A DNA stretch of 64,000 nucleotides from Methanotrichaceae archaeon. GTDB taxonomy: Archaea > Halobacteriota > Methanosarcinia > Methanotrichales > Methanotrichaceae. The notes below the pieces were generated by a model, which was not told the DNA's origin, searched no databases, and was given only the letters and a program-made list of their open reading frames with translations. Made by a program: the position numbers and the translations under genes. Positions 37,274 through 50,012 of this stretch are shown here, piece after piece. The stretch covers positions 32,001 through 96,000 of the forward strand of contig CAVVKN010000022.1 of NCBI GenBank assembly GCA_963748825.1, given 5' to 3'. Positions within the stretch are counted from its first letter, which is position 1; each line of letters opens with the position of its first letter.

Positions 37274-38872
37274 TCAGAAAAATCCCTTTCTGTCGTCGCC
37301 GGAGCTTTTTGGCTTAGGTTTTGTGGCAGTTTTTGCTGTAGATTTGGCAACACCCAATCCCAGCGACCTAGCCAGCTCCCTGAGATCTCTTTTGCCCGGC
37401 TTTGCAGCTTTTGTTCTCCTGGGCATTTGCAGCTCCTCATGACTTGTCTTATTCTCGGGAGGTTTCATCATCTTCCACTCCGCGATTTTTTTTAGAATTA
37501 TTTCTCGGCCCTCTTTTGCGTCTACTAATATCAAATCCTCTCTCACCCAATCCGGCAAAAATGAATTGACGCCGCCCAGGCTGTCATCCCCAAACCGGCG
37601 ATCGCAGAACAAGAGCACCCCCCTTTCCGATTCAGCGCGAATGACTCTTCCTGCTGCCTGCAGTCCCCGGTTGACGGCCGGCAGGGTATAGGCGATGAGC
37701 ATTCCCTTGGCCCGGCCATACTTTCTGGTATAGTAGCCGTTGATCTCTTTTTGAATCTCATCGTATGCAGCCAGGGGCAGGCCAACCACAGCCACCCCGT
37801 TTAAAGCCTCGCCCTTGTAATCAATTCCCTCGGCCATCTTTCCACCGCATACACCCGTTAAGACGCCTCCGCCCCGCCCGGCCAGGCGGAAGAAATCCTG
37901 CAAAATAGATGGCACATCATCGCTGCTTCGAGGCTCTACGCATAGCTTCTTTCCCACCTTGCGGCAGGAGGTGAGACATATTTCTCGGTAATTGTTCATC
38001 ATTGGATAGGAGGTAAAGAAGATGGCCACATTGCCGGGAACGCATTCTATTATCGATTTTATGTGCCCGGATATCTCCTCCCTATTGTCCGCATCTTCCC
38101 TGATCTCCAGTTGAGTAGTTGCCTTTTTTGCAGCCATTAGCAGGCGGTTTTCTTTGGGAAAGGGATTGGGCAGGCTGAGCTTTTGCGCCCTGTTCTCTTC
38201 ACCCAGACAGTAAAGCTCATAGGCCTCCAGGGGCGAGAAGGTGCCGGAGAGCATAATAGTCGCATTGATGTTGTCGGTGATGCGCCGGATATTGGCGGCG
38301 GGATCGATATTGTTGACCTCAAGACGCGCAAATTTCCTGCCGCCCGAACTCGTTACGGCGATCTTTCTCTGATAGGAAGAATCCTTTTCCGCCGTCTCTA
38401 CATCCCTGAGGTAAAGCAGCACCAGTGCAAGACTGGGCTGAATGTCGCCCTGCAGGTTCTCGCGATCGCCTTCTGCGAGATTCAGGTCGGCTACAGCCAC
38501 GGCAACATCGGAGAAATTAGATAGCGCTTCATCAATATCTTCGATGCCATCGTAAAGAAAGGAGCGAAATAGATCTGCGTCCAAGAGAGCCTCCCCTTCC
38601 GGCATCCTCTCCTGCTTGCTCAGCAAAAATCTCTTCAGCCGGGGAAGAAGAAGGCGTATAACTCTAATTCCCTCCCGTCTCCAGGAAGCCTTTTCTCGCG
38701 TCTCTTCCAGCCGGGCCTGGCCCAATGTGCCCTCGAACCTCTCTACCTCTTTTTCCGCCAGATCTATCATGCGCATGGAAAGAAGGCGCGAGTTCATGGC
38801 CCGCACGGCATCGCCCAGGTTATGCGCCTCATCGATGATCAGGGTAACCTTTTCTGATTCCATCTCCAGCCA
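37274..38872 (-). CDS. XPD/Rad3 (DinG-family) helicase, C-terminal part
   Basis: IIDEAHNL, SGT, FFTSY, EGID and QAAGRVIR motifs. Confidence 0.88.
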   Translation of the reverse strand, partial: WLEMESEKVTLIIDEAHNLGDAVRAMNSRLLSMRMIDLAEKEVERFEGTLGQARLEETREKASWRREGIRVIRLLLPRLKRFLLSKQERMPEGEALLDADLFRSFLYDGIEDIDEALSNFSDVAVAVADLNLAEGDRENLQGDIQPSLALVLLYLRDVETAEKDSSYQRKIAVTSSGGRKFARLEVNNIDPAANIRRITDNINATIMLSGTFSPLEAYELYCLGEENRAQKLSLPNPFPKENRLLMAAKKATTQLEIREDADNREEISGHIKSIIECVPGNVAIFFTSYPMMNNYREICLTSCRKVGKKLCVEPRSSDDVPSILQDFFRLAGRGGGVLTGVCGGKMAEGIDYKGEALNGVAVVGLPLAAYDEIQKEINGYYTRKYGRAKGMLIAYTLPAVNRGLQAAGRVIRAESERGVLLFCDRRFGDDSLGGVNSFLPDWVREDLILVDAKEGREIILKKIAEWKMMKPPENKTSHEELQMPRRTKAAKPGKRDLRELARSLGLGVAKSTAKTATKPKPKSSGDDRKGFF

Positions 38873-39582
38873 CGGAAGATGATATCTTGAAAGTCCGGGG
38901 AAAAGAGATGGGAATAGTTCATGATCACCATGTCGCAATTTTTGGCATAGAGGCTCATGATCTCGTAAGGACAGATTCCCTGGCAGGATTCCGTTAGTCG
39001 GGATGGCGGTGTGATTCTCTTCTTCAAGCCTTCCACTACATCCAGTGCAAGACTTGATCGCCGGAAATGGACCGTTCCGTTCAGCTCGAAGCCCTCTCTG
39101 CTCCTCAGGTAATAGGGACAGAAGGTTCTGTAGCCTGGCTCCTCCTCCGGCATGTTGTCGGAAGCAGGGTCATAGATGCTTCCGCTGCTCTTGCCGATCC
39201 TTGAGGAGACATAATTTTTTGTCCACTCTCTTAGCCGGGAGCAGCCGGCATAAACGCTCTCCCCGCGAAATTCATCTTCCAGAGGACAGATCTTCTGCTT
39301 GCCCACCATATAGGCTATTTCCGGCCTGTGCCGGGTCTTTGACCAGATCTTGTTTACTTCGTCGATGTAGATATTGATCTGAGAGACCGTTCGCACAGCA
39401 ACAACTGTTTTCCCTGTAGCTGCAGCTAAAACCGAGCAAATGCAGCTCGTTTTTCCCGTGCCGGTGGGCGCGTCTATCATCAGCACGCCATGATCGCCTT
39501 TGCTTACAACATCATAGACCGCGTCTAACATCCTATCCTGGTAGGGCCGGAGCGATTCATAGGGGAAATAGTCCAGGTACAC
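38839..39582 (-). CDS. XPD/Rad3 helicase, N-terminal part; 1-nt deletion near 38873
   Basis: FPY..RPYQ, APTGTGKT and Fe-S cysteines (CP, C, CPYY, CPYE). Confidence 0.88.
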   Translation of the reverse strand: MYLDYFPYESLRPYQDRMLDAVYDVVSKGDHGVLMIDAPTGTGKTSCICSVLAAATGKTVVAVRTVSQINIYIDEVNKIWSKTRHRPEIAYMVGKQKICPLEDEFRGESVYAGCSRLREWTKNYVSSRIGKSSGSIYDPASDNMPEEEPGYRTFCPYYLRSREGFELNGTVHFRRSSLALDVVEGLKKRITPPSRLTESCQGICPYEIMSLYAKNCDMVIMNYSHLFSPDFQDIIFRGWRWNQKRLP

Positions 39583-41618: not shown

Positions 41619-42356
41619 ATGAGATGCATAGAGCCACTGATGCCAACACACGTCAGGATCTCTGAAATAGGCCTCTATCTGCGCTGCCCCCGGCTGATTT
41701 ACTTTGAAAATCTGAGAAGGACGCCCAAAAAGATCGATACCAAGCAGATCCTCCTAAGAAGCCTCATGCTCTCTTTTTCCCAAAAAAAAGATCTGGAAGG
41801 CCAGCTAAAAGAGAGCCTGGCCAGGTTGGAAGCGGAACTGCCTTTGGTTTATGAGATCGAGCCGGATGAGATGGAGCCGGCCTGCCGGGAGCTGGAAGGA
41901 GAGATTGCCGGTATTGCCCAGGGCCTGGCCGGGCACCTGGACCTTCTGCTTCCCTGCCAGGCAGAGGTTGACCTTTTTTCGGATAAATTGGGCCTCTCCG
42001 GCAGGCTGGACCGCCTGGCACCGGGCAGCACTCCTTCCCTCATCCGCACGGGCAAAGCCCCGCAGGACGGCATCTGGAAAAGGGACAGGCTCATGCTGGC
42101 GGGTTATGCCCTGCTCTTGGGCGAGAAGAACAAGACGCATATAAATCAAGGACTGGTGGAGTATCCGGCCCTGGCCCTGGTTCGAGCCGCTGAGATCCAC
42201 AGCGTAGACAGAGCACGAGTGCTGCGCATTCGAGACAGAATAAGGCTGATAAAAGAAGGGCAGCTTCCCGACCGGCCCGAGGATGCACCCTGCCAGGCTT
42301 GCGAGGCGAGGGAGATTTGCGAGACCAGGCATAGTCTGGCGTCGAAATTCTTTTAG
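41619..42356 (+). CDS. Solo Cas4/Dna2-like Fe-S nuclease-fold protein
   Basis: YLRCPR..YF, LSGRLD and C-terminal C..C....C; no cas operon nearby. Confidence 0.82.
   Translation: MRCIEPLMPTHVRISEIGLYLRCPRLIYFENLRRTPKKIDTKQILLRSLMLSFSQKKDLEGQLKESLARLEAELPLVYEIEPDEMEPACRELEGEIAGIAQGLAGHLDLLLPCQAEVDLFSDKLGLSGRLDRLAPGSTPSLIRTGKAPQDGIWKRDRLMLAGYALLLGEKNKTHINQGLVEYPALALVRAAEIHSVDRARVLRIRDRIRLIKEGQLPDRPEDAPCQACEAREICETRHSLASKFF
42229..42356 (+). repeat. Left copy of a ~128-bp direct repeat (3' end of the cas4-like gene)
   Basis: Aligns with 49885-50012 without gaps. Confidence 0.9.
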
Positions 42357-42458: not shown

Positions 42459-44411
42459 GTGAGCAATGGTTGGGATAACCCGAGGGAGAGATATTTGGTG
42501 GCATCTGCGGAGATAATCAAGAAGGGGGACGTGTTTAATAATAGCGGCCTTTTTTCAAATCATTACTTAGAGAATATGATCCAAAAGGTCCCAGAATGGG
42601 ATGATGAAGCTCATCTCCTTGAAACCTTCTCGCGAATAAAAGAAATCTTCGATCGGAAAGGGAAAAATTTCGAAAGGTACGTTGAGGCCGATCTGGAACA
42701 CAATTGGGTCAGGCCGGTTTTTGACAAACTTGGTCACCATTACGGGGTTCAGGAAGGCTTACATCACGATCCCCTGAAACCCGATTATGCCTTCTTTCCC
42801 GATCTTGAGACTCTGGAAGAGGCTTATTCTCACAAGAGGGGCGCAGAAGATTTCTATAAGAAAGCCATTGCGGTTGGAGATGCTAAAGCCTGGAATGTGC
42901 TTTTAGATAAAAGCCGCCAGGGGAAAGCGCATCGAGAGATGACCAATCCTAGCTTTCAAATAGACGTTTATCTCCGAGCTACTCCGCCCAAGTGGGCGAT
43001 TCTCACCAACGGGAGAATGTGGAGGCTTTACCACGAAGACACGAGCGTCAAGATGGACTGTTACTATGAGGTAAATCTTCCAGAGTTGATTAATAGGATC
43101 GAGGAGACCGGCGATATCACGCTTTTCAAGTATTTTTATTTATTCTTCAGGCTTGAAGCCTTCCCCCAAGTCCCGCTCGGTTCATCTTTTCTGGATAGAA
43201 TCCGGGAGGAGAGCGCGGCATACTCCCAGAAGATTGGAACAGATCTGCAAGAGAATGTCTACAAAGCAATGAAGGTCTTGGCTGAAGGCTTTTTTGCAGA
43301 GCAATCAAACTCGTTGTCACATTTGACGGAAGACATAAAAGATGTTCAGAATAACTCCATGCGCCTGCTTTATCGCCTTCTATTCATCTTCTATGCCGAG
43401 AGCAGGAAGCTACTGAACACTGACAACAAACACTACCGGGAAATGAGTCTTCGCAAACTGAAGGAAGAAATCTCAGAAAAGATGGATCAGGGCGAGACTA
43501 TGCTTGCGGTCAGATCCACTTACTGGGAAGGATTAAAGGACCTGTTCCGCCTCATAAACGATGGTAGTGAAGCCTTTGGTTATCCTAAGGAAGAGTTCTA
43601 CATACCGGCATACAATGGCGGGCTCTTCGATCCTACGAAAAATCCGTTTCTCTCAGTGAAGAAGATAGGAAACTCATATCTGGCAGAGGCCATCGATCTC
43701 CTGGCACGTTCCCCCGGCGAGGGGAAAATGGTTTTCGTTGATTATTCGTCCCTGGACATTCGGCACCTGGGATCGATCTATGAAGGCATTCTTGAGTACA
43801 AGTTACACCTGGCTGAGGAGCCGATGGTGGCCATCAAAGAAAAGGGAAAAGAGGTCTGGTCGCTGAAAGGAGAGGCTGCCGGCAAGAAATTCTCAGATAG
43901 CGTTGAGGCGGGCTGCCTGTATTTGGTGACGGATAAGGGCGAAAGAAAGGCCACGGGCTCCTTCTACACACCGGAATATATCGTGAAGCACATGGTGAAA
44001 AACACACTTGCGCCACTGATCGATCCGATGATGGAGGAAGCAATGTGGTCTGAGGACCTGCGCAAGGATCTTCTCAAGAAGCTGCTCTCTCTCAAGGTTC
44101 TCGATCCGGCCATGGGATCAGGTCATTTTCTAGTTGAAGCTACGGATTACATTGCCAGGGAGATTATTCATGCCAAAGAGATAGCCAGACATGAGGATCT
44201 GGAATCTGAAGATATTGCGGAGAACGATATTCATTGGGCGCGGCGTGAGGTGGTCAGAAACTGCATCTACGGCGTGGACCTCAACCCAATGGCCGTGGAG
44301 CTGGCCAAATTATCGTTGTGGCTGACCACAGTTGCCTCTAACAAGCCCCTGAGCTTTTTGGACCACCACCTGAGATGCGGAAACAGCGCTCATCGGGGCG
44401 GAGCTGGATAA
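42459..44411 (+). CDS. Type IIG (Eco57I-like) restriction-modification enzyme, N-terminal part
   Basis: PDY...DAK nuclease, ILTNG..WRLY, LGSIYEG, GSFYTP and VLDPAMGSGHFL motifs; +1 indel near 44388. Confidence 0.9.
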   Translation: MSNGWDNPRERYLVASAEIIKKGDVFNNSGLFSNHYLENMIQKVPEWDDEAHLLETFSRIKEIFDRKGKNFERYVEADLEHNWVRPVFDKLGHHYGVQEGLHHDPLKPDYAFFPDLETLEEAYSHKRGAEDFYKKAIAVGDAKAWNVLLDKSRQGKAHREMTNPSFQIDVYLRATPPKWAILTNGRMWRLYHEDTSVKMDCYYEVNLPELINRIEETGDITLFKYFYLFFRLEAFPQVPLGSSFLDRIREESAAYSQKIGTDLQENVYKAMKVLAEGFFAEQSNSLSHLTEDIKDVQNNSMRLLYRLLFIFYAESRKLLNTDNKHYREMSLRKLKEEISEKMDQGETMLAVRSTYWEGLKDLFRLINDGSEAFGYPKEEFYIPAYNGGLFDPTKNPFLSVKKIGNSYLAEAIDLLARSPGEGKMVFVDYSSLDIRHLGSIYEGILEYKLHLAEEPMVAIKEKGKEVWSLKGEAAGKKFSDSVEAGCLYLVTDKGERKATGSFYTPEYIVKHMVKNTLAPLIDPMMEEAMWSEDLRKDLLKKLLSLKVLDPAMGSGHFLVEATDYIAREIIHAKEIARHEDLESEDIAENDIHWARREVVRNCIYGVDLNPMAVELAKLSLWLTTVASNKPLSFLDHHLRCGNSAHRGGAG

Positions 44412-44421
44412 GCTCGCCACC

Positions 44422-46394
44422 TTGCCGGGCGGGCAGGCAGAGCAGACGCCGCTCTGGAGCTTTGGGCTGAAGAGCCACACGAGCGGGCTTCTCAAAAGGT
44501 ACAGCCTCATGGCGGCGCTGCCGGACGACAATTTGCAGATGGTCAAATGGAAGGAGGATCAGTTCCGCCAGATCAAGGAGTCGGAGCTCTCCCGCAGGCT
44601 GAACGAGCTTTCTAATGTCTGGCTGTCCACATTTTTCGGCAACAAAGTGAGTGATGACGATTACTACGAGCTGCAAAACCACCTCAGCCCGGAGAAGTTT
44701 CCGGACTGGGCCGGCCTGCGGGAGCGGGAGTGGTTCACACGGGCGCAGGCGCTGGGGCAGGAGAAGCGGTTCTTCCACTGGGAGCTGGAGTTTCCGGAGG
44801 CGTTTCAGGGGGAGAAACGGGGATTCGATGTGGTGATCGGGAATCCACCGTACGACGAGCTATCCGAAGTGGCTCTGGGACGAAAAATTGATGAGAAGAA
44901 ATATTTCCAAGAATCTCAAATATATCAAATAGCTGCAACCAATAGAATAAATCTATTACCGATTTTTCATAGCTTGCGCTTTAGATAAAATCAAAAAAAG
45001 AAGGTGTTCATGGATTCATTGTACCTATGTCCCTTCTTGGTGATCGTTTTACTTTTGAGCTTAGAAGTAAAATTTTAAATGAGTCGGATTTGCAGCAGGT
45101 TGAGGCTTTTCCACAAAAAGATGATCCCAAAGACAGAGTTTTTTTTGACGCTAAGTTGCCTACCTGTGTATACATTTTAGTGCTGGCAATCCCCGAGAAG
45201 TGCATTTCAAGGTCAGGACACACCCGGGAAAGGATCTCAAAATAGGATCGCCTTCATATCTTGCATCATCACCTGAGATAGTGAAATTTGATCCAATTAA
45301 CTTATACAATACCACTCTGTGATAACCATGAGTGGGATCTTGCCAGCAAATTTGCACTAAGTCCGATTCTGTGTCCTATTGGTGATATTGCTGCTCCAAT
45401 GTCCGGAGAAGTTATGTTTAACGAAGCATTCAGGCCATATCTAAGCGAAAATCCTGAAAATGCTCTTGTGCTTCGAGGCGGACATGTACAGACGCTATGA
45501 ACTAATTGACGACCCTAAGCAGGGGACACCTATTTTTATTAACAAAGAAAGATGGCTAGCAGAATTGAAGAGAGGGAACTTCGGCTTTTGCTCATTTGAA
45601 GTCGAGAGTTGTCTACCAAGAAAGGGCAGCTCTTGATAACTGGCGTCGCATTATCGCAACTTATCTTCCAGCAGGCAATATTTGTGGACATAAGATATGT
45701 TACTTTATTAATGCAAAGTATAATGAGCTTGCATTTTTGGCCATTTTCAATTAGTAGCGTTGTAGAGTGGAGGTATGGATTGGTTAGTACTACCAATAAT
45801 TTATCTGCCTACCAAATAACTGCAATACCTATTCCAAAGTTCAACTTCTCCACCCCCGCTCCCGAGCGCGCTCGCCTGGGGGCGGAGCTGCAGCAGCTCT
45901 ACGCCGAGGGCAAGCACGCCGAGATCCTGGCCCAGATGGAGGCCTGCCTGCCCAAAGACGAGGCAGGCAACTTCATCGCAGAGCAGGAACGTTCGGATGT
46001 AGTGCACGACCTGCTGGCCTTCCTGGCGGAGAGAATGCTGGAGATGAACAAGCAGAAGCAGCAGGAGATCAAAGGCTTCCTGGGATGGCTGGAAGGCTAC
46101 CTGGGCGCAAAGGTCGATGATCTGACGCCCAAGACCAAACTGCAGAGCTACTACGAACACGATTATGAGAGCTTTTTGGCGGTGCTGAAGAAGAACAGCA
46201 AGAAGCTGCAAGTCGATCCGGCCAGACGGGAGCCGGCGGAGGCGCTGCGGGCCGAGTTCGAGGGATCGCTGGGCAAGCTGATGCCACTGCGGGAGAGGAT
46301 CAGGCAGACGGATGAACTGATCGACGCGGTGGTGTACAAACTGTACGGGCTGACGGAAGAGGAAATAAGAATCGTGGAAGGAAATGCAGCTTGA
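44422..46394 (+). pseudogene. Type IIG R-M C-terminal part (NPPY motif, TRD, C-terminal helices) with several frameshifts
   Basis: FHWELEFPE and GFDVVIGNPPY; AT-rich TRD at about 44880-45850; ends TD.LID..VY.LYGLT.EEI.IVE. Confidence 0.82.
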
Positions 46395-46429
46395 GAGAGT
46401 ATGCGGATTATCAGAGGAGGAAAGGTGCG

Positions 46430-46873
46430 ATGGATCTGATTTATCTTGATTACAATTGCTTTCAAAGAAGATTCGATGATCCCAGCCAGATAAGGATCCA
46501 GCTTGAAGCTCTGGCCTGCGAAGAGATCTTTCTGAGGGCTGAGATTGAAGAGGTCCAATTAGCGTGGTCCTTCATGCATGAGGATGAGACCTTGCTTTGC
46601 CCCTTCCCGAATAGATTGAACGTTGCCTTCATACTTTCCACTCTTTGCAGGATAAGAATTGGACCTGAAGAGCAAATCTATGAATCCGCCCTGGAATTTC
46701 AGAGAAGATCCAAGATGACCTCAAAGGATGCTATCCACCTCGCATGTGCCCATTTTATCAAAGCCGATTACTTCATAAGTTGCGACAATAGACTTGTAAG
46801 GCAGGCTAAGAAAATAGGATTGAAAATGGCGATCTTGAATCCTGTGGATTACATTAGAATGGAGGATCTATGA
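46430..46873 (+). CDS. PIN-domain (VapC-like) protein
   Basis: IYLDYNC..R.FDD, DAIHLACA and FISCD motifs. Confidence 0.85.
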   Translation: MDLIYLDYNCFQRRFDDPSQIRIQLEALACEEIFLRAEIEEVQLAWSFMHEDETLLCPFPNRLNVAFILSTLCRIRIGPEEQIYESALEFQRRSKMTSKDAIHLACAHFIKADYFISCDNRLVRQAKKIGLKMAILNPVDYIRMEDL

Positions 46874-47082
46874 CCGATAGAGCAAGGGCAATGGACGAAG
46901 CAAAGCTTAGAGTTCTTGGAATAGATGCCTTGAATAAGGCTTTAGGTCCCGCCGAAGCGCTTAGATTTCTAGCTCTCTTCCACCGTGAGCCAACTGATTA
47001 CGTTGAGGTCTCTAAAAAGCTTTACGAAAATCAGAGTGTGGAAGAAATCTTCAAGCGGGCCAAAACGCATTGGAGAGGCTGA
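46870..47082 (+). CDS. Small partner (antitoxin-like) of the PIN protein
   Basis: Overlapping ATGA; G..AL...LG...A.RFL......DY pattern. Confidence 0.7.
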   Translation: MTDRARAMDEAKLRVLGIDALNKALGPAEALRFLALFHREPTDYVEVSKKLYENQSVEEIFKRAKTHWRG

Positions 47083-47130: not shown

Positions 47131-47683
47131 TCGACTTCACACGCCCGCGCCCGAGCGCACCCGCCTGGGAGCGGAGCTGCAGCAGCTCTACGCCGATGGC
47201 AAGCATGCGGAGATCACAGGCCCCTGGTGGATGTCTGCCTGCCCAAAGACGTGGCTGGCAATTTCATCGCAAGCCAGGAGAAATCGGATGTGGTGCACGT
47301 TCTCCTGGCCTTCCTGGCGGAGAGAATGCTGGAGATGAACAAGCAGAAGCAGACGGAGATCAAAGGCTTCTTGGGCTGGCTGGAAAGCTACGTGGGGGCC
47401 AGAGTGGAGAACCTCACGCCCAAAGACAAAGCTGCAGAGCTACTACGAGCACGATTATGAGAGCTTCCTGGCGGTGCTCAAGAAGAACAGCAAGAAGCTG
47501 GCCATCGATCCGGCACGCCGGGAGCCGGCGGAGCTGCTCCGGGCCGAGTTCGAGGGATCGCTGGGCAAGCTGATGCCACTGCGGGAGAGGATCAGGCAGA
47601 CGGATGAACTGATCGACGCGGTGGTGTACAAACTGTACGGGCTGACTGAGGAAGAGATCAGGATTGTGGAAGGGAAGGCTTGA
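47131..47683 (+). repeat. Orphan copy 2 of the R-M C-terminal segment, frameshifted
   Basis: High identity to 45851-46394. Confidence 0.92.
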
Positions 47684-47853
47684 TATGCGCGTGATGTTAT
47701 CCTGCAATTTCTTGATTCATTATTCCGAGAATTCAGTTGATTGCGATACAGATATATACTCGTGTAGATTAATCAATAAGGCATTAGAGACATTATTGAA
47801 AAATAAAAATCTAAAAAATGTAGGATTGGAATTACTAAGAGGAGGGGCAGAAC

Positions 47854-48555
47854 ATGAGCGTGTTGTCCGATGTCAGGCTATTAGAAAAGATCTACGATAA
47901 AGAACTCAAAATAGAGCCCTTCGTCTTTGACAATATCCAGCCCTCCTCCATTGATCTGACCCTGGATAAACGAATACGAACTCCTAAGAGAGGCATTGAG
48001 CTTAATGCATTTGATGCCGATATCAAGGAATGCTTTGAAGAGAGAATTCTTGATGAGTACACCCTCAAACCAGGAGATTTCATTATCGGCCAGATTAAGG
48101 AGAACATCGGCCTTTCCAAAAGGATGACCGGCCTCATTCAAAATAGGAACAGCCTGATTCGTCTGGGAATTAACGTGGGACTATCGTCTTACATCAATCC
48201 TGGCTATTTTGGTCAATTGCCCATAGTCATCCACAATTTGGGAAGCTTCTCCGTGGATCTGGTTCCTGGGATGAGGATCTGTCAGTTGGTCATATTTGAT
48301 GTCGAACCCGATCCCGAAAGAGATTACAGCCAAAGAAAAGACGCCAAATATCTGGGAGAAAGCGACGTCGGTTTATCTAAATTATACATGGATGTGGAAG
48401 TTGAAGAATACTTAAAAGAGTACAATAAAAAGAGCACCAAAGAGATTGATAAAAAGGAACTCATTGAATTCTTGGAACAAAGAATAAAAGAGAAGGCCAT
48501 AGACACACTGAAAGGTCTGACGGACGAGGAAAAACAAAAGATTGGTCTGCTATAA
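47854..48555 (+). CDS. dcd: dCTP deaminase/dUTPase-fold protein with atypical active site and C-terminal extension
   Basis: LSD, IQPSSIDL, L.PG, RNSLIRLG, INPGY.G, GMRICQL and AKY motifs. Confidence 0.85.
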   Translation: MSVLSDVRLLEKIYDKELKIEPFVFDNIQPSSIDLTLDKRIRTPKRGIELNAFDADIKECFEERILDEYTLKPGDFIIGQIKENIGLSKRMTGLIQNRNSLIRLGINVGLSSYINPGYFGQLPIVIHNLGSFSVDLVPGMRICQLVIFDVEPDPERDYSQRKDAKYLGESDVGLSKLYMDVEVEEYLKEYNKKSTKEIDKKELIEFLEQRIKEKAIDTLKGLTDEEKQKIGLL

Positions 48556-48556
48556 T

Positions 48557-49000
48557 ATGGAAAAGAACTTCAAAGACTTAATTCAAGAGATCAGGCCGTA
48601 TATCGTCAAGGGCATTCAAGATGCAAAAGTTAGTGAGTACGAGCAGAGCTATAAGAAACGGAATGGGAAAAAGCCGTCTGCAGAAGAGATTAACCAGTTT
48701 ATTTCTATTCTAATCGCGAATGGAACAGTAAAGAGCGATGCAGATGAGATTGTAAATGAATTAATTAATAAATATAGTAAAAAATTATTAGTAAAATTAA
48801 TAATAAATTCATCTATTTCACTGGGTTCTGCCGGATTGTTCCTGGTTTATATCTTAATATATTTAAAAACTGTTTTGGGATTGAATATTGTTAAAGAGGA
48901 TTACCTCATAAGCGCGCCAAATTTCATACTAGCTATAATATTATTTTTTATTGCCATCGCCCTATTTGTCATTTCTGTTTCAAAAAAAGACAAAGACTGA
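48557..49000 (+). CDS. Hypothetical protein with two C-terminal transmembrane helices
   Basis: ATG 1 nt after the dcd-like stop; very AT-rich; two hydrophobic segments. Confidence 0.75.
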   Translation: MEKNFKDLIQEIRPYIVKGIQDAKVSEYEQSYKKRNGKKPSAEEINQFISILIANGTVKSDADEIVNELINKYSKKLLVKLIINSSISLGSAGLFLVYILIYLKTVLGLNIVKEDYLISAPNFILAIILFFIAIALFVISVSKKDKD

Positions 49001-49030
49001 CTATCGTCTGTCCGCATCTCTGCCGCCAAT

Positions 49031-49210
49031 CCCGCGCCCGAGCGCGCCCGCCTAGGGGCGGAGATGCAGCAGCTCTACGCCGATGGCAAGCATGCGGAGA
49101 TCACAGGCCCCTGGTGGATGTCTGCCTGCCCAAAGACGTGGCTGGCAATTTCATCACCGAGCAGGAACGGTCGGACGTGGTCCACTACCTTCTCGCATTC
49201 CTGGCAGAGA
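49031..49210 (+). repeat. Orphan copy 3 (truncated) of the R-M C-terminal segment
   Basis: Shares the ATCACAGGCCCCTGGTGGATG variant with copy 2. Confidence 0.9.
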
Positions 49211-49291
49211 GGGCTGATAATTGGTGCCTCCTCTGATGTAAGGGCCTACATGGATAAATGGTGATCTGCTAAAGCCGCGGTGCTTCAGCCT

Positions 49292-49884: not shown

Positions 49885-50012
49885 TTCGAGACAGAATAAG
49901 GCTGATAAAAGATGGCCAGCTTCCCGACCGGCCACGAGGTGCACCCTGCCCGGCTTGCGAGGCAAGAGAGATCTGCAGGGTGAGGCATAGTCTGGCGTCA
50001 AGATTCTTTTTA
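49885..50012 (+). repeat. Right copy of the cas4-like 3'-end direct repeat
   Basis: Translates RDRIRLIKDGQLPDRPRGAPCPACEAREICRVRHSLASRFF. Confidence 0.9.

Follow-up and report, generated by a model that had tools for sequence, protein, structure and literature searches.

A dCTP deaminase-fold protein with replaced catalytic residues and its small membrane partner: a putative two-gene conflict module of archaea and bacteria

Results

Gene layout of the A-B pair

The window analysed here comprises 64,000 nucleotides of contig CAVVKN010000022.1 from a Methanotrichaceae archaeon (assembly GCA_963748825.1), and its positions 47854 to 49000 carry the two genes that are the subject of this study. 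Gene A encodes a protein with the fold of dCTP deaminases (Dcd) in which the catalytic residues are replaced, and gene B encodes a small protein with two predicted transmembrane (TM) helices. A preliminary description, made from the sequence alone, had proposed a new antiviral system; we suggest below that the pair is probably an undescribed conflict module, with a putative function in either antiviral defence or addiction. The pair and its spacer are arranged as follows:

47684-47853, forward strand: AT-rich spacer upstream of A, seen in the sequence
47854-48555, forward strand: gene A, putative Dcd-fold pseudo-enzyme of 233 aa with a C-terminal helical tail; open reading frame (ORF) with ATG start
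48557-49000, forward strand: gene B, 147-aa partner with a predicted cytoplasmic three-helix N-domain that leads into TM helix 1 (TM1), a short loop and TM2; ORF

A Shine-Dalgarno-like AGGAGGGG can be read at 47840-47847, 5' of gene A. In the mechanical ORF list, B starts at a TTG codon (48542), but the ATG at 48557 is the start common to all close homologues and was therefore taken here, which results in 147 aa and a gap of 1 nt after the stop codon of A. The GC content is 0.370 in 48001-49000 compared to 0.505 and 0.523 in the adjoining kilobases, so that coordinates, gap and composition are all as claimed for a tight, AT-rich two-gene unit. Two metatranscriptome runs from two studies each yielded one short contig inside A (47872-48100 and 48080-48330), which is no proof of transcription; RNA contigs were confined to gene A, and their lack over B and the flanks carries no weight.

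Gene A retains the Dcd fold with replaced catalytic residues

The product of gene A matches the Dcd profiles of Pfam (PF22769, E 3.7e-27, 95.7 bits at a cut-off of 27) and NCBIfam (TIGR02274, 112.7 bits, exceeding the curated cut-off of 92.8). Its AlphaFold2 (AF2) model (pLDDT 89.7, pTM 0.80) was matched by Foldseek to 4a6a_B (E 1.5e-17, TMt 0.89, rmsd 1.8) and to solved Dcd and Dcd-Dut structures in general with a TMt of 0.86-0.91 and an rmsd of 1.6-2.0 Å over 161-191 columns. Superposition on the Dcd-Dut of M. tuberculosis and the Dcd of E. coli gave TM scores of 0.86-0.89 and rmsd values of 1.8-2.0 Å. The structural model thus shows A to have the Dcd fold of the trimeric dCTP deaminase/dUTPase family. 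The positions at which A departs from the active enzymes of this family are:

48142-48153, forward strand: motif II, N97-R98-N99-S100 (canonical G-R/K-S-S), with Asn at the position of the catalytic Ser, from alignments
48196-48198, forward strand: N115, replacing the motif-III Asp (IDPG to INPG), from alignments
48226-48228, forward strand: V125, replacing the catalytic Glu of the TLE motif, from alignments
48379-48552, forward strand: family-specific C-terminal tail of ~58 aa, about residues 176-233, from the alignment and AF2

In the HMMER alignment of A to the solved Dcd/Dcd-Dut chains 4xjc and 2qxx, 'egRSSvgRLG' stands opposite 'qnRNSliRLG', 'vDPGf' opposite 'iNPGy' and 'gqitlElfn' opposite 'gqlpiVihn', which confirms the substitutions NRNSLIRLG, INPG and GQLPIV that had been read from the sequence before. 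Alignments with active enzymes show that R98, S100, G105, R141, C143, Q144, K165 and Y166 are kept; together with the TM score of 0.89 to 4a6a, the conserved R98, R141, K165 and Y166 bear out the earlier statement that the fold, the Arg and the K-Y lid are retained. The tail, likewise foreseen as helical, lies directly 3' of the K-Y lid segment and is absent from the canonical Dcd rows of the alignment. AF2 places helices at 181-189, 200-220 and 224-229, with a pLDDT that drops to 63-75, and in the family alignment D180 and E182 are invariant and G231 and L232 near-invariant.

We take S111, R115 and E138 to be the catalytic residues of E. coli Dcd, with E138 corresponding to the Glu of T-L-E and S111 to the Ser of G-R/K-S-S, and in trimeric dUTPases, hydrolysis relies on the motif-III Asp as the general base. 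Gene A thus has the fold and the above-threshold profile score of a dCTP deaminase or Dcd-Dut, but carries Val125 in place of the catalytic Glu, Asn99 in place of the catalytic Ser and Asn115 in place of the motif-III Asp of trimeric dUTPases (PF00692). As judged from the alignments, A lacks the residues needed for deamination (Glu, Ser) and for dUTPase hydrolysis (motif-III Asp), and probably does not function as a member of the dCTP deaminase family, even though its score exceeds the profile cut-off.

Loss of the catalytic residues is a trait of the whole A family

A word-based search with A retrieved 103 clusters, ~95 of which are family members (37-96% identity) and the 8 weakest ordinary-length Dcd; most of the ~95 cover all 233 aa, including the tail. 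From contigs of one genome per species, 80 loci were then compared by aligning each A-like ORF to the family profile, namely 26 family loci (L011-L036) and 54 canonical dcd loci (L037-L090). The catalytic Glu at position 125 is found in none of the 26 family loci, which have V, A, I, M or L instead, and in all 54 canonical loci. At position 99, 22 family loci carry N and 4 carry S, compared to S in 54/54 canonical loci; position 115 is Asn in 26/26 family loci and Asp in 47/54 canonical ones. Motif II of the 26 family loci reads N/S-R/K-N/S-S, accompanied by I-N-P-G, and all 54 canonical loci have E-G-R/K-S-S and T-L-E. The loss of the catalytic residues is therefore a trait of the whole A family. 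At the same time, R98, S100, G105, R141, C143, Q144, K165 and Y166 are invariant or nearly so within the family, and N115, Y118, D180 and E182 are invariant positions specific to it.

These family-specific residues could be read as a sign that A is still an enzyme, performing a new chemistry on a (modified) pyrimidine nucleotide at the membrane by means of residues such as N97, N115, Y118, D180 and E182, possibly to break down or sequester a non-canonical dNTP, and with B serving as anchor or channel. The invariance of N115, Y118, D180 and E182 and the preserved framework of the substrate site are in line with this idea. However, all known catalytic residues of the fold are changed to residues that are neither acids nor nucleophiles (Val, Asn, Asn), and D180 and E182 lie in the tail, beyond the lid, so that we give a new enzymatic activity only a slim chance.

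The genome of origin contains a second gene of the Dcd family (163 aa), which scores 60.5 bits, below the TIGR02274 cut-off, retains the Asp as W-D-P-G-Y and looks like an archaeal Dcd-type dUTPase. Gene A itself occurs in 3 of 25 genomes of the genus (G000, G001, G015), and all other matches of A in 41 related genomes are only 22-30% identical. That A might be an ordinary housekeeping dCTP deaminase with a membrane gene adjacent by chance is suggested by its TIGR02274 score and by the label 'dCTP deaminase' that NCBI and JGI give to its relatives. Given the family-wide loss of the Glu (0/26 versus 54/54), the presence of another Dcd-family gene, the patchy occurrence of A (missing from 22/25 genomes of the genus) and its constant linkage to B, we consider this explanation extremely improbable and rejected it.

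Another Dcd paralogue without the Glu was noticed among the canonical loci. In Anabaena (L069:7767-8459) and Fischerella (L082:7764-8465), a second Dcd-like gene of ~230 aa lies directly upstream of the canonical dcd; its catalytic Glu is gone (ITVFN for TLE), and V-P-K-V-S replaces E-G-R-S-S. This gene is unrelated to the A family.

Gene B encodes a protein with a soluble N-domain and two TM helices

The membrane part of B was located as follows:

48797-48952, forward strand: two predicted TM helices of B (residues 81-99 and 114-132) and the intervening loop, from a Kyte-Doolittle scan and AF2

The AF2 model of B (pLDDT 93.3) consists of helices 5-36, 42-55, 57-107 and 120-144, of which helix 57-107 runs from the soluble domain straight into TM1. 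Hydrophobicity and model agree with each other and with the partner envisaged in the preliminary description, a soluble N-domain followed by two TM helices. An N-in/C-in topology, with both ends in the cytoplasm, is suggested by segments rich in Lys that precede TM1 and follow TM2. No Pfam, NCBIfam or PADLOC family matched B. An exhaustive HMMER search of 1.84 billion representatives found 52 homologues at E <= 1e-3, nearly all of 130-170 aa, that share the N-terminal pattern L-R-P-x-I-I ... Y-x-x-x-Y ... N-x-G-x-x-P-S ... I-N-x-F-I ... E-A-D and, behind it, a pair of hydrophobic helices; an 895-aa match (P0142) was dropped as a low-complexity sequence without meaningful domains. In the ESM Atlas, the fold of B reached a best feature score of 0.84 with unnamed hypothetical clusters, below the level of 0.9 taken as a lead.

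A and B are tightly linked, with weak support for a contact between them

A match to the B profile lies directly 3' of A in 23 of the 26 family genome loci, including three in which B is imperfect (split over two ORFs in L020, truncated in L023, cut by the contig end in L026). The three loci without a profile match are L036, in which a 147-aa ORF with two TM helices overlaps the stop codon of A, L033, which has a 73-aa ORF resembling the N-domain in the position of B, and L034, where nothing was found there. In metagenome contigs, B is directly downstream in 51/51 loci (L130-L180). Some of these contigs are contigs of metagenome-assembled genomes (MAGs), and the genome and metagenome sets are therefore not independent of each other. 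No B-profile match was present beside the Dcd genes of the 54 canonical genome loci, nor B beside the Dcd-like genes of 29 other metagenome loci (24 canonical, 5 divergent or unclear). The membrane partner is thus tightly and almost universally linked to A, and the conservation of the pair, proposed earlier as a check, is borne out by both sets.

The stop codon of A and the start codon of B mostly overlap by 1 or 4 nt or are separated by 0-10 nt; wider gaps were seen in L149 (45 nt), L155 (126 nt) and L174 (200 nt). Pairwise identities of A and B are correlated with r = 0.91 (105 pairs from 15 loci), a value reached by none of 2000 label shuffles, and in the same 15 loci B evolves about twice as fast as A. 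The two genes are translationally coupled and inherited together, and they have spread horizontally. The observation is more than a chance association, given that many divergent loci preserve the substitutions as well as the pairing. No fused or longer form of A was found among 3641 candidates of 409-2000 aa, which is weak evidence. Truncated versions of A in the gut contigs L168, L172, L173 and L175 were judged to be assembly errors because they are due to single-base indels at varied places in low-coverage DNA that is otherwise 100% identical; A in L167 is cut by the contig end.

Complex prediction for A with residues 1-85 of B gave an ipSAE of 0.58, compared to 0.00 for the best of three controls, with at least 75% of the contacts agreeing between runs and a partner pLDDT of at least 80. 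Of 80 solved complexes, 58 attain the ipSAE mark, as do 2 of 110 mismatched pairs, and the range up to 0.60 contains only 7 of the 80 solved complexes together with both passing mismatches, counts that are only a rough guide here because custom alignments were used. The structure prediction suggested as a check in the preliminary description therefore speaks weakly for a contact between A and B(1-85): the score is above the controls, but at the low end of the scores that pass.

A divergent subfamily (L035, L036, L093, L176-L180) was observed in addition. Its members (35-38% identity) have a shorter tail (206-210 aa in total) and are followed by a protein of the same layout with two TM helices, which matches the B profile weakly or not at all; in L178-L180, this pair lies directly 5' of a type I HsdR gene.

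The pair is part of repeat-bounded cassette arrays in Methanothrix

Around A-B, the window carries a broken restriction-modification gene and a small toxin-antitoxin (TA)-like pair, both upstream, and direct repeats on either side:

42459-46394, forward strand: type IIG restriction-modification gene, broken into ORFs 42459-44411, 44422-44988 and 45609-46394 (Pfam MmeI/Eco57I/N6_Mtase; PADLOC REase_MTase_IIG, DrmMI)
45853-46387, forward strand: repeat copy 1, 3' end of the type IIG gene (direct repeat)
46391-47082, forward strand: PIN-domain protein (46391-46873; PF01850, 1e-4) and 70-aa partner (46870-47082), with a 4-nt ORF overlap
47144-47679, forward strand: repeat copy 2, left boundary of the A-B cassette (families D1-D3, 83-90% identical to copy 1)
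49031-49211, forward strand: partial repeat copy 3, right boundary of the A-B cassette (family D1, 88% to copy 2)

Small fragments lie between the at least three ORFs of the type IIG gene, which has intact versions of 1341 aa in L012 and 1309 aa in L135; the broken gene may be a pseudogene or an assembly error. The repeats correspond to the last ~0.2-0.54 kb of this gene, the PIN cassette being located between copies 1 and 2 and A-B between copies 2 and 3. The earlier placement of the pair inside a defence island holds for the upstream side, where it follows the frameshifted type IIG gene and the PIN TA pair, but not for the downstream side, where small winged helix-turn-helix genes are followed by housekeeping genes.

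The repeat also accompanies A-B in other Methanothrix loci (L011, L012, L013, L016), even in L016, which has no full restriction gene nearby. A contig of 7.5 kb (L017, 1-7461) contains at least six repeat copies that separate small cassettes, among them two ParE-family toxins with a small partner and one A-B pair, and in L139, L144 and L012 pairs of the AF2212-like/PIN and ParE types occupy the same position. The company of A-B in these arrays is the strongest contextual argument for a TA- or abortive infection-like module, and the arrays look like an integron-like collection of cassettes by recombination at the 3' end of the restriction gene. One DNA contig (run X2) joins 47192 to 49085 and thereby skips the rest of copy 2 and the cassette; as the likeness is 90% at low stringency and a related strain or the repeats may explain the joint, it is only a hint of a form without the cassette.

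Further observations concern the surroundings of this region. A direct repeat of 126 nt (86% identical; 42229-42354 and 49885-50010) encloses the ~7.5-kb restriction and cassette region; its first copy is the 3' end of a gene for a Cas4-like PD-(D/E)XK nuclease (41619-42356), its second lies just 5' of a gene for a DRG-type GTPase, and the two are possibly the ends of an inserted island. An XPD/DinG-like helicase gene on the reverse strand (37277-39582) is seemingly split into the overlapping ORFs 37277-38938 and 38842-39582, the larger part matching PADLOC typeIV_DinG (6e-55); uncharacterised genes of 211 aa and 414 aa adjoin it.

Distribution and genomic context

Besides Methanothrix, the pair was found in MAGs of Ca. 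Loosdrechtia (Planctomycetota), Leptospirales, Alphaproteobacteria, Bacillota, Synergistaceae, Halanaerobiales, Spirochaetia, Desulfovibrionaceae, Lachnospiraceae and an Enterobacterales bin; relatives with 90-98% identity come from MAGs labelled Methanothrix. The pair is rare and patchy, but present in archaea and at least eight bacterial groups, a distribution that implies repeated transfer between the domains. This transfer has apparently taken place among anaerobes; the named hosts are anaerobes or come from anoxic habitats.

For the genomic context, ORFs were called mechanically within ~4-6 kb of the pair and scanned with Pfam and with PADLOC, the latter applied only to the ORFs left unnamed by Pfam and a few others. 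A restriction or PADLOC-listed gene lies within 6 kb of the pair in 8 of the 21 annotated lineages. A type IIG gene is nearby in the Methanothrix lineage (window, L012, L018, L135) and directly downstream in L150/L151 (6e-239), type I HsdR and HsdS genes are directly downstream in L178-L180, and a restriction-modification methylase and an S subunit are found near the pair in L148. The remaining four lineages have SoFic and HicAB (L024/L153), PDC-S05 overlapping the start of A together with YafQ (L031), the PDC-S04 Fic gene (L036), or PDC-M11B directly upstream (L152). In 6 of the 21 lineages, TA or mobile-element genes are the only conflict-type neighbours: MNT-type nucleotidyltransferase pairs and ParA (L023), a nucleotidyltransferase (L025), two integrases (L030), ImpB and many unknowns (L034), three S24 repressors and Panacea (L177), and the edge of a Prim-Pol/VapE element in a gut variant (L159, L162, L163). 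Seven lineages (L019, L020, L021, L022, L027, L032, L033) are surrounded by housekeeping genes only; L016 was set aside from this count, since it still carries the restriction-gene repeat. The link to defence islands is thus real but partial, and a location near restriction or PADLOC-listed genes, whose enrichment the preliminary description had named as a check, is seen in eight lineages and is missing in the seven with housekeeping neighbours.

No fewer than seven contigs carry the gut variant with A and B 100% identical. The conserved block comprises only ~2.2 kb and has differing upstream flanks in L159, L162 and L163, with at least three flanks in all. A DUF1653 gene, an opposite-strand XRE-type repressor and Prim-Pol/VapE replication genes lie on its 3' side, and since the repressor and the replication genes follow, the pair is located at the edge of an integrative element. 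The same arrangement recurs in two IMG/VR contigs. The host genes beside the insertions of this variant (L159, L162, L163, L091, L092) differ and include those for a pyruvate kinase, a methionine-type ABC transporter and a histidine phosphatase.

The context bears on two explanations that require no antiviral role. The first is a plain TA cassette, in which B would be a membrane toxin and A a protein antitoxin whose Dcd fold serves as a binding scaffold without nucleotide sensing, the module persisting because its loss kills the cell. A putative antitoxin gene in first position, the overlap of stop and start codons and the small size fit type II and type IV TA operons; ParE, PIN and AF2212-like TA pairs occur in the same arrays (L017, L139, L144, L012 and the window), other loci lie among HicAB, YafQ, MNT-type nucleotidyltransferase and Panacea genes, and isolated insertion into housekeeping regions (7/21 lineages) is typical of selfish TA modules. 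However, R98, S100, R141, Q144, K165 and Y166 are invariant or nearly so across 41-96% identity, which weighs against a pure scaffold because a scaffold would not need these nucleotide-site residues, and neither A nor B belongs to any Pfam or PADLOC TA family. We therefore regard a plain TA cassette as unlikely, yet as an explanation to be taken seriously; as it is not exclusive of an abortive-infection role, it overlaps with the reading that we prefer.

The second is a physiological role outside of conflict, with B as a subunit of a membrane channel or transporter and A as its nucleotide-responsive regulator, connecting for instance the dNTP pool to the envelope in anaerobes. The housekeeping surroundings of the seven lineages mentioned above, the anaerobic or anoxic origin of all named hosts and a loosely CorA-channel-like layout of B (at a Foldseek probability of <0.1 only) would be compatible with such a role. 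It is nevertheless distinctly unlikely in view of the patchy occurrence within a single genus (3/25 genomes), the transfer across domains, the location in cassette arrays and at the edges of mobile elements, the foreign GC content (0.37 versus about 0.51) and the lack of a conserved metabolic neighbour.

Discussion

We hypothesize here that the A-B pair is a mobile conflict module of two genes, belonging to the abortive-infection or toxin-antitoxin type, with A as a nucleotide sensor and B as a membrane effector, and assign a probability of roughly 0.45 to this reading. The conserved residues suggest that A may be a trimeric sensor or regulator that binds (deoxy)pyrimidine nucleotides rather than an enzyme. 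Closure of the lid upon nucleotide binding would shift the tail of A, which in turn would touch the cytoplasmic domain of B; in active relatives, the lid shuts over the bound nucleotide, and as the tail directly follows this lid, ligand occupancy could control the meeting of tail and B. If the nucleotide pool changed, or if a viral protein acted on A, B would then be freed or activated and might oligomerise, damage the membrane and thereby stop the cell or the virus. A TA-like addiction fits the genomic context about as well as defence does.

Several points weigh against this interpretation. Nucleotide binding and trimer formation of A are suggested by conserved residues, and the predicted contact between A and B(1-85) points only weakly to an interaction. 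Position 103, an Arg in canonical enzymes, is R in most family members and K, Y, Q or L in some, and this relaxation could indicate decay of the former ligand site instead of its reuse. As 7 of the 54 canonical genes likewise lack the motif-III Asp, its loss alone is not diagnostic. Protein B has no detectable similarity to known pores, holins or toxins: a Foldseek search of the PDB was empty at E <= 1e-3, and the best hits of a wide VIA search, generic helical hairpins with a Z of up to 7.5, are within the noise for helical models. The neighbourhood of defence genes is given as raw counts without a background rate, so that it is suggestive and not a statistical enrichment; the lineages behind these counts were grouped by identity band and not by a tree (22 lineages, of which 21 were annotated, L147 being left out), and seven of them have housekeeping neighbours alone. 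With the A alignment as query, the pair was present in only 2-3 of 39 IMG/VR matches, and B was unmatched in 50,697 phage and 72,556 plasmid records. Matches of A in the phage records were canonical Dcd genes only (74 records, all of <60% identity, none covering 80% of the query).

The fact that type I or type IIG restriction systems adjoin the pair in four lineages prompted a more specific idea. Viruses that evade restriction enzymes by substituting other bases for C or T in their DNA make non-canonical pyrimidine dNTPs. It is conceivable that A is a receptor for such nucleotides (dUTP, 5-hydroxymethyl-dCTP or -dUTP) of base-modified, restriction-proof viruses: when the unusual dNTP floods the cell, A would bind it, lid and tail would move, B would be released and the membrane would collapse, which would make the pair a back-up to the adjoining restriction systems. 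Alternatively, A could be a decoy that mimics the host Dcd or dUTPase and traps viral inhibitors of these enzymes. We concede no more than an outside chance to this extension of the conflict-module hypothesis.

If A-B is indeed a defence or addiction module, it would introduce a type of sensor new to prokaryotic conflict systems, namely a nucleotide enzyme of housekeeping origin that was converted into a ligand-binding pseudo-enzyme, and would be among the few conflict modules common to methanogenic archaea and many bacterial phyla. The pair offers a testable case for the question of how cells read the pyrimidine dNTP pool during infection. Furthermore, the whole family (P0001-P0095) is named 'dCTP deaminase' by the NCBI and JGI pipelines because its members score above the TIGR02274 cut-off; this amounts to a systematic annotation error, as a consequence of which metabolic reconstructions credit an enzyme that is probably lacking. 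The Methanothrix arrays behind the type IIG gene may in their own right be an integron-like system that collects modules in archaea.

Neither A nor B matched a family of PADLOC-DB v2.0.0 (2023) at E <= 0.01, in agreement with the earlier expectation that no named defence system would be hit. Full-text searches, with supplements and subscription journals outside their scope, retrieved no publication in which a protein of the Dcd fold is coupled to a TM protein and none under 'dCTP deaminase-like' or under 'dCTP deaminase' combined with 'pseudoenzyme'. Three other publications, a preprint on SthRAP of S. thermophilus and papers on a Methanoperedens extrachromosomal element (ECE) and on cyanophage CL131, proved, in the passages concerned, to be unrelated to the A family. 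The A-B pair is thus a member of no described system.

The closest relatives of A by structure are the canonical Dcd and Dcd-Dut enzymes (E. coli 1xs1; M. tuberculosis 2qxx/4a6a; B. halodurans 4xjc; M. jannaschii 1ogh), which have the same fold at 26-29% identity and share the R-x-S, G, R-I-C-Q and K-Y positions. Unlike these enzymes, A has Val, Asn and Asn for Glu, Ser and Asp, carries an extra helical tail of ~58 aa, is paired with a two-TM protein, and is accessory and horizontally spread instead of housekeeping. A defensive dCTP deaminase has already been described (Tal et al., bioRxiv 10.1101/2021.04.26.441389) and, according to that preprint, is encoded by a single gene of 576 aa, combines an N-terminal kinase domain with a zinc-dependent cytosine deaminase domain and acts by depletion of dCTP. 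It shares with A the name, a link to dC nucleotide metabolism and the presence of restriction or TA genes nearby. As far as the preprint describes it, its fold is unrelated to that of A, in accordance with the preliminary description; A lacks catalytic residues, and neither of the two domains was found in A by Pfam or by PADLOC at E <= 0.01.

Three groups of known systems resemble the pair in particular aspects. Trimeric dUTPases of staphylococcal phages have signalling or moonlighting functions and bind the Stl repressor, and a complex of the M. tuberculosis dUTPase with Stl (PDB entry 7pwx) is among the Foldseek matches of A. These phage proteins are active enzymes without a membrane partner that target a transcriptional repressor and are related to A only at the level of the superfamily; in common with the switch proposed here for A, a member of the dUTPase superfamily makes a protein contact that is tied to the nucleotide site and the C-terminal lid. 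TA pairs that consist of a small membrane toxin and a protein antitoxin, such as CptA/CptB, and membrane toxins with Panacea-domain antitoxins are a further group. No homology to this group was found, and A as a putative antitoxin would be a pseudo-enzyme of 233 aa with a conserved ligand site; the similarity consists in a small membrane protein and a cytosolic partner encoded by a compact operon, and A-B is itself located among TA cassettes. Finally, two-gene abortive-infection systems combine a cytoplasmic sensor with a membrane effector, for example RexA/RexB of phage lambda, and effectors with two TM helices are known from CBASS and Pycsar. Neither A nor B resembled these systems in the sequence and fold comparisons, and their effectors respond to cyclic nucleotides or a dedicated sensor protein and not to a Dcd fold. 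They are, however, operons of a soluble sensor and a small membrane protein on mobile elements or in islands, and by this analogy A-B would have the layout of the known modules in which a sensor is coupled to a small membrane protein.

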